DNA of 64,000 bases from Escherichia coli (lineage in GTDB: Bacteria > Pseudomonadota > Gammaproteobacteria > Enterobacterales > Enterobacteriaceae). Position 1 is the first letter of the stretch. Each line of letters starts with the position of its first letter. A program made the translations under genes and the position numbers. Positions 26,191 through 26,668 of this stretch are shown here, piece after piece. Where the stretch lies: assembly GCF_013122565.1 (NCBI RefSeq), contig NZ_CP053258.1. The stretch is one strand, 5' to 3'. Below the pieces are notes generated by a model. It ran no database searches, was not told where the DNA came from, and worked only from the letters and a program-made list of their open reading frames with translations.

Positions 26191-26218
26191 TTTACAGCGG
26201 CGCGTCATTTGATATGAT
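26191..26218 (+). promoter_or_regulatory. tyrT-type tRNA promoter (-35 TTTACA, 16-bp spacer, -10 TATGAT, GC-rich discriminator)
   Basis: tttacagcggcgcgtcatttgatatgat followed by gcgccccgcttcccg; about 45 nt upstream of the mature tRNA 5' end. Confidence 0.85.
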
Positions 26219-26268
26219 GCGCCCCGCTTCCCGATAAGGGAGCAGGCCAGTAAAAAGCATTACCCCGT

Positions 26269-26353
26269 GGTGGGGTTCCCGAGCGGCCAAAGGGAGCAGA
26301 CTGTAAATCTGCCGTCATCGACTTCGAAGGTTCGAATCCTTCCCCCACCACCA
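26269..26353 (+). tRNA. tyrT: tRNA-Tyr (anticodon GUA), 85 nt with encoded CCA
   Basis: GGTGGGGTTCCCGAGCGGCCAAAGGGAGCAGACTGTAAATCTGCCGTCATCGACTTCGAAGGTTCGAATCCTTCCCCCACCACCA; long variable arm typical of type II tRNA-Tyr. Confidence 0.97.
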
Positions 26354-26530
26354 TCACTTTCAAAAGTTCCTGAACTCTCAAGCGAATCCGCAATTAAATA
26401 TTCTGCCCAAGCGGTGAAGGATGAGAAGATTCGACCAAGGTTCGACTCGAGCGTCAGCGAGAGAGCGTTGCCGCAGGCAACGACCCGAAGGGCGAAGCGC
26501 GCAGCGCTAGTAATCCTTCCCCCACCACCA
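26354..26530 (+). repeat. rtT-type repeat unit downstream of tRNA-Tyr, ending in a copy of the tRNA 3' end
   Basis: Unit ends with aatccttcccccaccacca, identical to the last 19 nt of the tRNA; the following ~50 bp re-start the unit in degenerate form. Confidence 0.75.
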
Positions 26531-26668
26531 TTACTTCCTGAAATACTCAAACCCTGTTACTCCGAGCTAATTCTGCCCGATGGCACCGCGTTTACCGGAC
26601 CTAAAATATCCTCCCCTGAAGTTCGGATAAGCGAAGCGCATCCGACAACTCACCCCGCACCGTGCCCA

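Follow-up and report, generated by a model that had tools for sequence, protein, structure and literature searches.

Architecture of the tyrT locus

The DNA analysed here, referred to as the window, is a stretch of 64,000 nucleotides from Escherichia coli (contig NZ_CP053258.1), in which a tRNA-Tyr gene followed by an RtT repeat lies between purU and narI. The features of this locus are the following.

25267..26109, plus strand: purU (formyltetrahydrofolate deformylase), a 280-aa ORF; purU is annotated at the orthologous position in KFu014, SMS-3-5 and K-12
26191..26218, plus strand: predicted tyrT promoter of the sigma-70 type, with a -35 element TTTACA, a 16-nt spacer and an extended -10 element TG-n-TATGAT (consensus scan, 10/12 matches)
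after the -10 element of the tyrT promoter, plus strand: G+C-rich discriminator GCGCCCCGC
26269..26353, plus strand: tRNA-Tyr(GUA) (ARAGORN; Rfam RF00005, 53.4 bits; alignment A1)
26354..26530, plus strand: complete 177-nt repeat unit, consisting of a 46-nt spacer and RtT (unit comparison; direct repeat D1)
26400..26530, plus strand: RtT RNA (rttR), with the tRNA-like 3' end AATCCTTCCCCCACCACCA (Rfam RF00391, 121.5 bits)
26421..26510, plus strand: 29-aa arginine-rich ORF within RtT, matching the legacy K-12 tpr annotation ('protamine-like protein')
26512..26536, plus strand: 25-nt partial repeat unit, which accounts for the '.14' in the classic figure of 3.14 repeats (local alignment, with shuffles as control)
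26674..26695, minus strand: intrinsic-terminator-like hairpin and T-run, placed to terminate narGHJI (consensus scan)
26714..27391, minus strand: narI (nitrate reductase gamma subunit), a 225-aa ORF; narI is annotated in orthologous loci

The purU-narI intergenic region extends from 26110 to 26713 (604 nt), and the minus-strand hairpin near its narI end is invariant in all aligned genomes. The tyrT promoter sequence is identical in the window, KFu014, SMS-3-5 and K-12 (alignment A1), as are the leader and the tRNA; relative to K-12, identity is 100% from 26151 to the tRNA, a segment that comprises the leader and the promoter, the function of the latter being predicted. In the entire 64-kb window ARAGORN detects a single tRNA, a tRNA-Tyr with anticodon GTA at 26269-26353 on the plus strand, which scores 53.4 bits against the Rfam cloverleaf tRNA model RF00005 (gathering score 29). 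All of its 85 positions are the same as in both K-12 copies, tyrT and tyrV, including the variable arm GTCATCGACTTC (A1), the part of the molecule in which we take tyrU to differ from the tyrT/tyrV type.

The original prediction of a promoter followed by one complete 85-nt tRNA-Tyr is borne out by the promoter scan (26191-26218) and by the ARAGORN gene. Its further claim that 26354..26700 holds no second complete tRNA-Tyr agrees with the ARAGORN result for the window and with a permissive Rfam scan of 25500-27500, in which no second tRNA was found at E<=1; a repeat search of the window locus likewise found no second copy of the tRNA body. A tandem tyrT-tyrV doublet, whether of the K-12 type or with a short spacer, was not found in the window, there being no second tRNA before narI. 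The single tRNA is bounded on its 5' side by the tyrT-type leader and on its 3' side by tyrV-type downstream sequence with no spacer remnant, so that leader, one tRNA and the tyrV-type downstream unit are contiguous (alignments A1-A3), which is the arrangement of a singlet allele and the expected product of a crossover anywhere inside two identical 85-bp genes. It had also been proposed that tRNA-Tyr dosage is changed; this holds as a gene count at the tyrT locus only, tyrU being located outside the window.

The RtT repeat unit

The RtT RNA (26400-26530) is co-oriented with the tRNA-Tyr and lies 3' of it. It matches RF00391 over its full length (model 1-130/130, 121.5 bits against a gathering score of 45) and ends in a tRNA-like CCACCA 3' end, with one stem pair rendered non-canonical by a private G-to-T change. 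An 'RtT sRNA' is annotated at the same position in E. coli genomes. A passage of PMC3318445 that cites the description of the rtT RNA by Bosl and Kersten (1991) presents RtT as a stable RNA processed from the tyrT transcript in K-12.

One full-length RtT was detected in the Rfam scan of 25500-27500, as expected from the earlier reading of about one rtT repeat, and the 177-nt unit to which it belongs shows 95% identity to K-12 units 1 and 2. Direct repeat D1 pairs 26335-26378 with 26512-26555, at a distance of 177 nt, and AATCCTTCCCCCACCACCA recurs at 26512-26530; the copy of the tRNA 3' end that had been noticed there without a tRNA body in front of it is, according to the repeat search, the 3' end of RtT. 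The partial unit at 26512-26536 is identical to 26335-26359 at 24/25 nt, its first 19 nt being this same RtT 3' end. A further degenerate repeat unit had been suspected at this point, of which the 25-nt partial unit stands; in the sequence past 26536 the best local alignment score was 20, at chance level when compared with shuffles (15.5 +/- 2.2, maximum 24), and a degenerate unit beyond that position was rejected because its alignment is no better than that of shuffled sequence.

A second repeat, D2, links a T-arm-like 12-mer in RtT (AAGGTTCGACTC, 26437-26448) to AAGGTTCGAATC in the tRNA (26327-26338), the RtT copy lying ~63 nt upstream of the tRNA-like RtT 3' end. To judge from its sequence, the RtT unit looks like the 3' half of a tRNA-Tyr split by an insertion.

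The 134-aa (plus strand) and 96-aa (minus strand) ORFs over the locus read through the tRNA and RtT, and no Pfam family was matched at E<=1 by these or by the 29-aa ORF, results consistent with the view that the long ORFs are artefacts of reading through RNA genes. The translation of the 29-aa ORF (26421-26510), which is putatively coding, differs from K-12 tpr at 2 residues.

RtT-like units were also observed 3' of tRNA-Tyr inside an operon of the thrU-tyrU-glyT-thrT type in GTDB representatives (L017, L018, L029, L031, L037, L053, L068, L074 and L080), the taxa being Cedecea, Acerihabitans, Dickeya, Budvicia, Intestinirhabdus, Sodalis, Yersinia aleksiciae and one MAG; RtT is therefore not confined to the tyrT locus.

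Comparison with K-12, SMS-3-5 and other alleles

The tyrT and tyrV genes are adjacent and served by a common tyrT promoter, tyrU being the third gene (PMC2887954). In K-12 MG1655 the annotated locus consists of tyrT, a 209-nt spacer, tyrV and three full 178-nt RtT units, within an interval of 1,255 nt, in agreement with the earlier account of tandem tyrT and tyrV genes followed by about three repeats. Egan and Landy, in 1978, reportedly described at the K-12 tyrT-tyrV-rttR locus a 178-bp sequence repeated 3.14 times. The K-12 operon (b1231, b1230, b4425) resembles the window in its position between purU and narI, its promoter and leader, its 85-nt tRNA, the 178-nt repeat family (95% identity), the terminal partial unit and the downstream sequence, whereas the window is without one tRNA and the 209-nt spacer and without two of the three RtT units (604 versus 1,255 nt). 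SMS-3-5 has two tRNAs with 34 nt between them and one RtT unit, in an interval of 724 nt. Short-spacer doublets of this kind (SMS-3-5 and GCA_052983875.1, the latter hereafter L141) have the same flanks as the window and a single RtT unit, and what the window is missing relative to them is exactly one tRNA and its 34-nt spacer (119 bp). The excess of the interval over that of the window corresponds accordingly to one tRNA plus the 34-nt spacer in SMS-3-5, and to 294 + 2 x 178 nt in K-12.

The 34-nt tyrT-tyrV spacer reads TCTCAAGCATTACCTCAAAATTTGAATTACCCCT and that of K-12 TAATTCACCACAGCG. The 209-nt K-12 spacer itself holds an RtT-like unit, which is followed by the same 34-nt short spacer (A1), so that short- and long-spacer doublets differ by a 175-bp unit with a 19-nt repeat at its bounds (A1). 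The sequence immediately after the tRNA distinguishes the three junctions, being TCAC in the window, TCTC... in the short spacer and TAAT... in the K-12 spacer.

Natural singlets are also found among other strains. KFu014, HUM3355, GF54 and 2009C_3689 have, as the window has, one tRNA and one RtT unit (1+1), and the O157:H7 strain F7349 has one tRNA and two RtT units (1+2). The window differs from the natural 1+1 singlets in sequence (95.6-97.6% identity over 552 nt), and the private substitutions of its RtT unit are held in common only with the relative L140 (see below), not with the other natural singlets.

The region is the ordinary E. coli tyrT operon in a minimal 1+1 form, with one tRNA-Tyr and one RtT, and this reading, together with the loss of a tRNA unit by deletion (see below), is highly probable (about 0.9). 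At this tandem-repeat locus the copy number varies recurrently, so that the window shows no new kind of feature, and its single-copy tyrT-rtT form belongs to already known biology.

Frequency in E. coli genomes

Allele frequencies were estimated in 5,426 complete RefSeq genomes by single-HSP megablast with very strict E-value cut-offs, such that only contiguous matches pass; the counts represent BLAST architectures and not curated annotations. An earlier count with a 165-nt junction query and >=80% coverage had returned 4,711 records by joining overlapping partial HSPs, and was replaced by the single-HSP counts. The junction of a singlet (leader, tRNA, standard unit) occurs in 195/5,426 genomes (3.6%), and an exact 1+1 arrangement, colinear with the window from the promoter to narI, in at least 124 (2.3%). 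The short-spacer (34-nt) doublet is present in 2,567 genomes (47%) and the K-12-type long-spacer (209-nt) doublet in 1,821 (34%), with about 843 (about 15%) left for the remaining arrangements. As the commonest E. coli allele is the 34-nt-spacer doublet and a single RtT unit is common, K-12, with its 3.14 RtT units, is no baseline for this locus.

The singlets occur on several haplotypes: K-12-like, SMS-like, O157:H7 (1+2) and IS4-bearing. A spread sample examined with a 2.1-kb query showed diverse architectures, the match being split at the repeats in some genomes, and ten loci with the exact PurU protein of the window were found to carry 1, 2 or 3 tRNAs and 1-3 RtT units. Three tandem tRNA-Tyr genes are present in GCA_037199725.1 (L117) and in Citrobacter sp. 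MGH106 (L065), indicating that the array expands as well as contracts.

Other variants of the locus involve foreign sequence. In the E. coli strain THO-003 (L126), and in L129 and L137, a genomic island is inserted directly 3' of the first tRNA-Tyr, with fatty-acid and sterol desaturases on one side and an ACP synthase III, an epimerase and a metallo-beta-lactamase-fold protein by narI; this island probably accounts for part of the ~15% of other architectures. In a set of E. coli genomes, doublets as well as singlets, the stretch from the RtT unit to narI is interrupted by an IS4-family transposase (DDE_Tnp_1) (L132, L134, L138; H131-H134). Twelve matches to the short-spacer doublet fall on records classed as plasmids, which may be F-prime-like elements or misassigned replicons.

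Close relatives of the window

From 20000 to 34000, the window reaches at most 98.6% identity over 14 kb to any of the 5,426 complete RefSeq E. coli genomes, and its lineage is poorly represented among finished genomes. Relatives were sought through exact protein matches to RssA and the YcgV-like autotransporter, which are lineage-specific enough for the purpose, PurU, NarH and NarJ being too widely shared and NarG matching a Logan contig only; close relatives were defined as genomes that share the RssA allele of the window, and these are 99.6-99.9% identical to it upstream of tyrT. Their tyrT loci are as follows.

GCA_052983875.1 (L141): 2 tRNAs and 1 RtT unit
GCA_012778335.1 (L139): 2 tRNAs and 1 RtT unit
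GCA_009394435.1 (L142): 2 tRNAs and 2 RtT units
GCA_018578885.1 (L140): 1 tRNA and 2 RtT units

Between the distal RtT RNA and a point just inside narI, L140 differs from the window by one substitution only and includes the window's private substitutions, although the 46-nt spacer of its distal unit differs from that of the window at a few positions. The singlet state is probably common to the window and L140 by descent, with the two alleles one RtT unit apart, as this shared sequence suggests. Upstream of the tRNA, L141 and the window share 99.88% identity (8 mismatches in 6.6 kb), against only 97.97% downstream of it (44 mismatches in 2.3 kb), and this drop in identity at ~26350 indicates that a breakpoint of ancestry or recombination coincides with the tyrT locus. 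A near-identical doublet parent of the exact haplotype of the window was not found among the genomes compared, and the spacer of the window's repeat unit is a mosaic of the units of its relatives, for which reason the specific event and the parental allele cannot be reconstructed.

Ancestral state of the locus

The polarity of the change was surveyed by searching the GTDB species representatives for exact matches to the RtT 3' end, which gave 105 loci. Of these RtT-bearing loci, 57 are doublets and 1 is a triplet, 8 are interior singlets, and the others are truncated contigs or RtT units of tyrU operons; the doublet is hence found in 57/66 interpretable loci, and most Enterobacteriaceae species representatives have two tandem tRNA-Tyr genes at the tyrT locus. 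Two tandem genes are present at the orthologous purU-narI position in E. albertii (L006), Escherichia sp. E1V33 (L057), the divergent 'E. coli' E69 (L030) and Salmonella enterica subsp. diarizonae (L097), E69 being the 'E. coli' representative nearest to the window, at only 90-95% identity, in a set that does not include the window's own genome.

Since the outgroups and three of the four close relatives are doublets, the singlet of the window is derived and the doublet ancestral. It could be argued that a single tRNA was ancestral in the window's lineage and that the doublets elsewhere are independent duplications: duplication by the same unequal exchange is possible, as the triplets illustrate, and there are eight singlet species representatives outside Escherichia. 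Against this, the Escherichia and Salmonella outgroups are all doublets, as is the great majority of interpretable representative loci, and the spacer sequence is conserved between K-12-type and SMS-type doublets, which implies that the doublets are homologous and were not made independently; with three of the four genomes that carry the RssA allele of the window also being doublets, an ancestral singlet is extremely improbable.

How the contraction may have arisen

The derivation of a singlet from a doublet is seen in two pairs of strains. KFu014 (1+1) shows 0 mismatches to SMS-3-5 over 3.8 kb apart from the 119-bp tRNA-plus-spacer unit. The laboratory strain OV2 (NZ_CP195020.1) carries a single tRNA with anticodon CTA and the substitution C81A, the supF-A81(Ts) allele of classical genetics. 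These two supF changes are the only differences from K-12 between ychJ/purU and the end of the tRNA; the one RtT unit of OV2 shows 100% identity to K-12 unit 1, and beyond RtT its sequence is 100% identical to that which follows unit 3 in K-12. By this unit-by-unit identity, OV2 equals K-12 with one tRNA unit of 294 bp and two RtT units of 178 bp each removed, and on alignment the contraction is readable directly against K-12. OV2 has the 1 tRNA + 1 RtT architecture and the length of the window locus, but its CTA anticodon and A81 stand on a K-12 haplotype, in contrast to the wild-type GTA of the window on a different, natural haplotype; the two share 96.9% identity over 285 nt from the promoter through the tRNA into RtT. 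The supF tRNA of OV2 (L110, 1301-1385) is unannotated in the RefSeq record and is labelled tRNA-Pyl by ARAGORN, an annotation pitfall for suppressor strains. In MCJCHV-1 a singlet is found on an IS4-bearing haplotype whose relatives are doublets, and, given that this singlet and the 1+2 singlet of F7349 stand on distinct haplotypes, singlets must have arisen several times.

The exact-unit differences between KFu014 and SMS-3-5 and between OV2 and K-12, together with the several haplotypes, make precise deletion of a whole repeat unit between direct repeats, by recombination or slippage, the best explanation for the singlet. The ancestral state has two tandem identical tRNA-Tyr genes, from which one tRNA-plus-spacer unit was in all probability lost by precise deletion, 119 bp in length if the parent spacer was 34 nt and 294 bp if it was of the 209-nt K-12 type. 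Such a loss may proceed by unequal homologous recombination or by replication slippage between the two 85-bp tRNA copies, and would leave a hybrid gene, preceded by the tyrT leader and followed by the downstream sequence of tyrV; RtT units, each of 178 nt, would vary in number independently by the same mechanism. Russell et al. are said to have found, in 1970, that duplicate tRNA-Tyr genes (su+III, supF) segregate singlets by unequal recombination.

The view that this is a contracted tyrT-tyrV-rtT allele with one tRNA-Tyr gene fewer is thus upheld by the outgroup doublets and by the exact-unit differences of the singlets. The proposal of recombination between repeated tRNA 3' ends fares well as to repeat recombination, but the homology that would remove a tRNA is the whole 85-bp gene; the 19-nt 3'-end repeat is instead the homology that separates short-spacer from long-spacer doublets (A1). 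Whether a RecA-dependent crossover or slippage took place we infer from the junctions only, and the parental allele of the window's strain and the effect of the loss on its tRNA-Tyr level are likewise matters that we infer.

Assembly artefact or selection

Two tandem tRNA-Tyr genes might in principle have collapsed at an 85-bp perfect repeat during assembly, and short-read assemblies do break here, L142 and several GTDB contigs ending at the locus. The Logan assembly of SRR11451224, an SRA run of the same strain, includes two contigs that are 100% identical to the window, and one of these, L004, ends inside the tRNA. This contig, however, extends from narG and covers exactly 30 nt of the 3' end of the tRNA before it stops (window 26324); if a k=31 graph is assumed, a second tRNA junction (TCTC... 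or TAAT...) would have ended it 1-2 nt earlier, so the reads, as far as this contig end tells, seem to hold only the tRNA-TCAC junction. An independent assembly, the 888-kb contig of L140, which matches the window from the distal RtT RNA to narI, is also a singlet, and singlets are present in 195 complete genomes, OV2 among them. A collapsed doublet is therefore very improbable.

Granted that the singlet is real, selection on tRNA-Tyr or RtT dosage could have favoured it, as opposed to a neutral deletion that keeps recurring; such selection is conceivable for translation economy, for tuning of the stringent response or under phage and anticodon-nuclease pressure. Singlets are found repeatedly on many different backgrounds, and clones as successful as O157:H7 strains retain them; copy number varies even among relatives that are 99.6-99.9% identical upstream, and the tRNA-Tyr is named in PMC11555353 as a reported target in retron and phage conflicts. 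Singlets are nevertheless rare (3.6%) and scattered, as expected of mutation-driven turnover at a tandem repeat, and the genome listings show no apparent link to host or source; selection for dosage is thus considered unlikely. A bolder version would regard the tyrT-rtT array as contingency-like, with the repeat number (1-3 tRNAs, 1-3 RtT) kept variable by selection on tRNA-Tyr1/RtT dosage and the 1+1 state of the window as a selected low-dosage state. The pressures on such an array may include phage, retron, anticodon-nuclease and nutritional stress, but the idea would be quite unlikely to hold.

Implications for annotation and typing

The number of tRNA-Tyr genes is polymorphic in E. coli, with 1, 2 or 3 at the tyrT site. 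Several architectures are common there, of which the K-12 arrangement of tyrT-tyrV and 3.14 repeats is but one, although the biological weight of this is small. Three tRNA-Tyr genes are not to be assumed by annotation pipelines or by codon or tRNA-dosage models, and, as short-read assemblies break or may collapse at tyrT, copy number there calls for read-level confirmation. The length of the purU-narI interval (604, 724, 902, 1,255 nt and others) is a possible cheap PCR typing marker.

Other differences from K-12 in the window

The window is colinear with K-12 at 98.5-99.0% identity. In 14.9-64 kb the comparison with K-12 showed neither IS elements nor rearrangements, features that bear on a possible Shigella affiliation, which was considered in view of the best identity of only 98.6% to any E. 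coli. At 42612-43086 it holds one ldr/rdl unit (type I toxin and antisense RNA) where K-12 has three in tandem (ldrA/B/C), a second tandem-repeat contraction relative to K-12 within the window. At ~59261-59939, an insertion of ~680 bp separates dhaR from the ycgV-like autotransporter gene and contains a 97-aa ORF with a YCII domain (PF03795); the insertion is absent from K-12 and from GCA_052983875.1 and is present in a Logan contig of SRR11451224.
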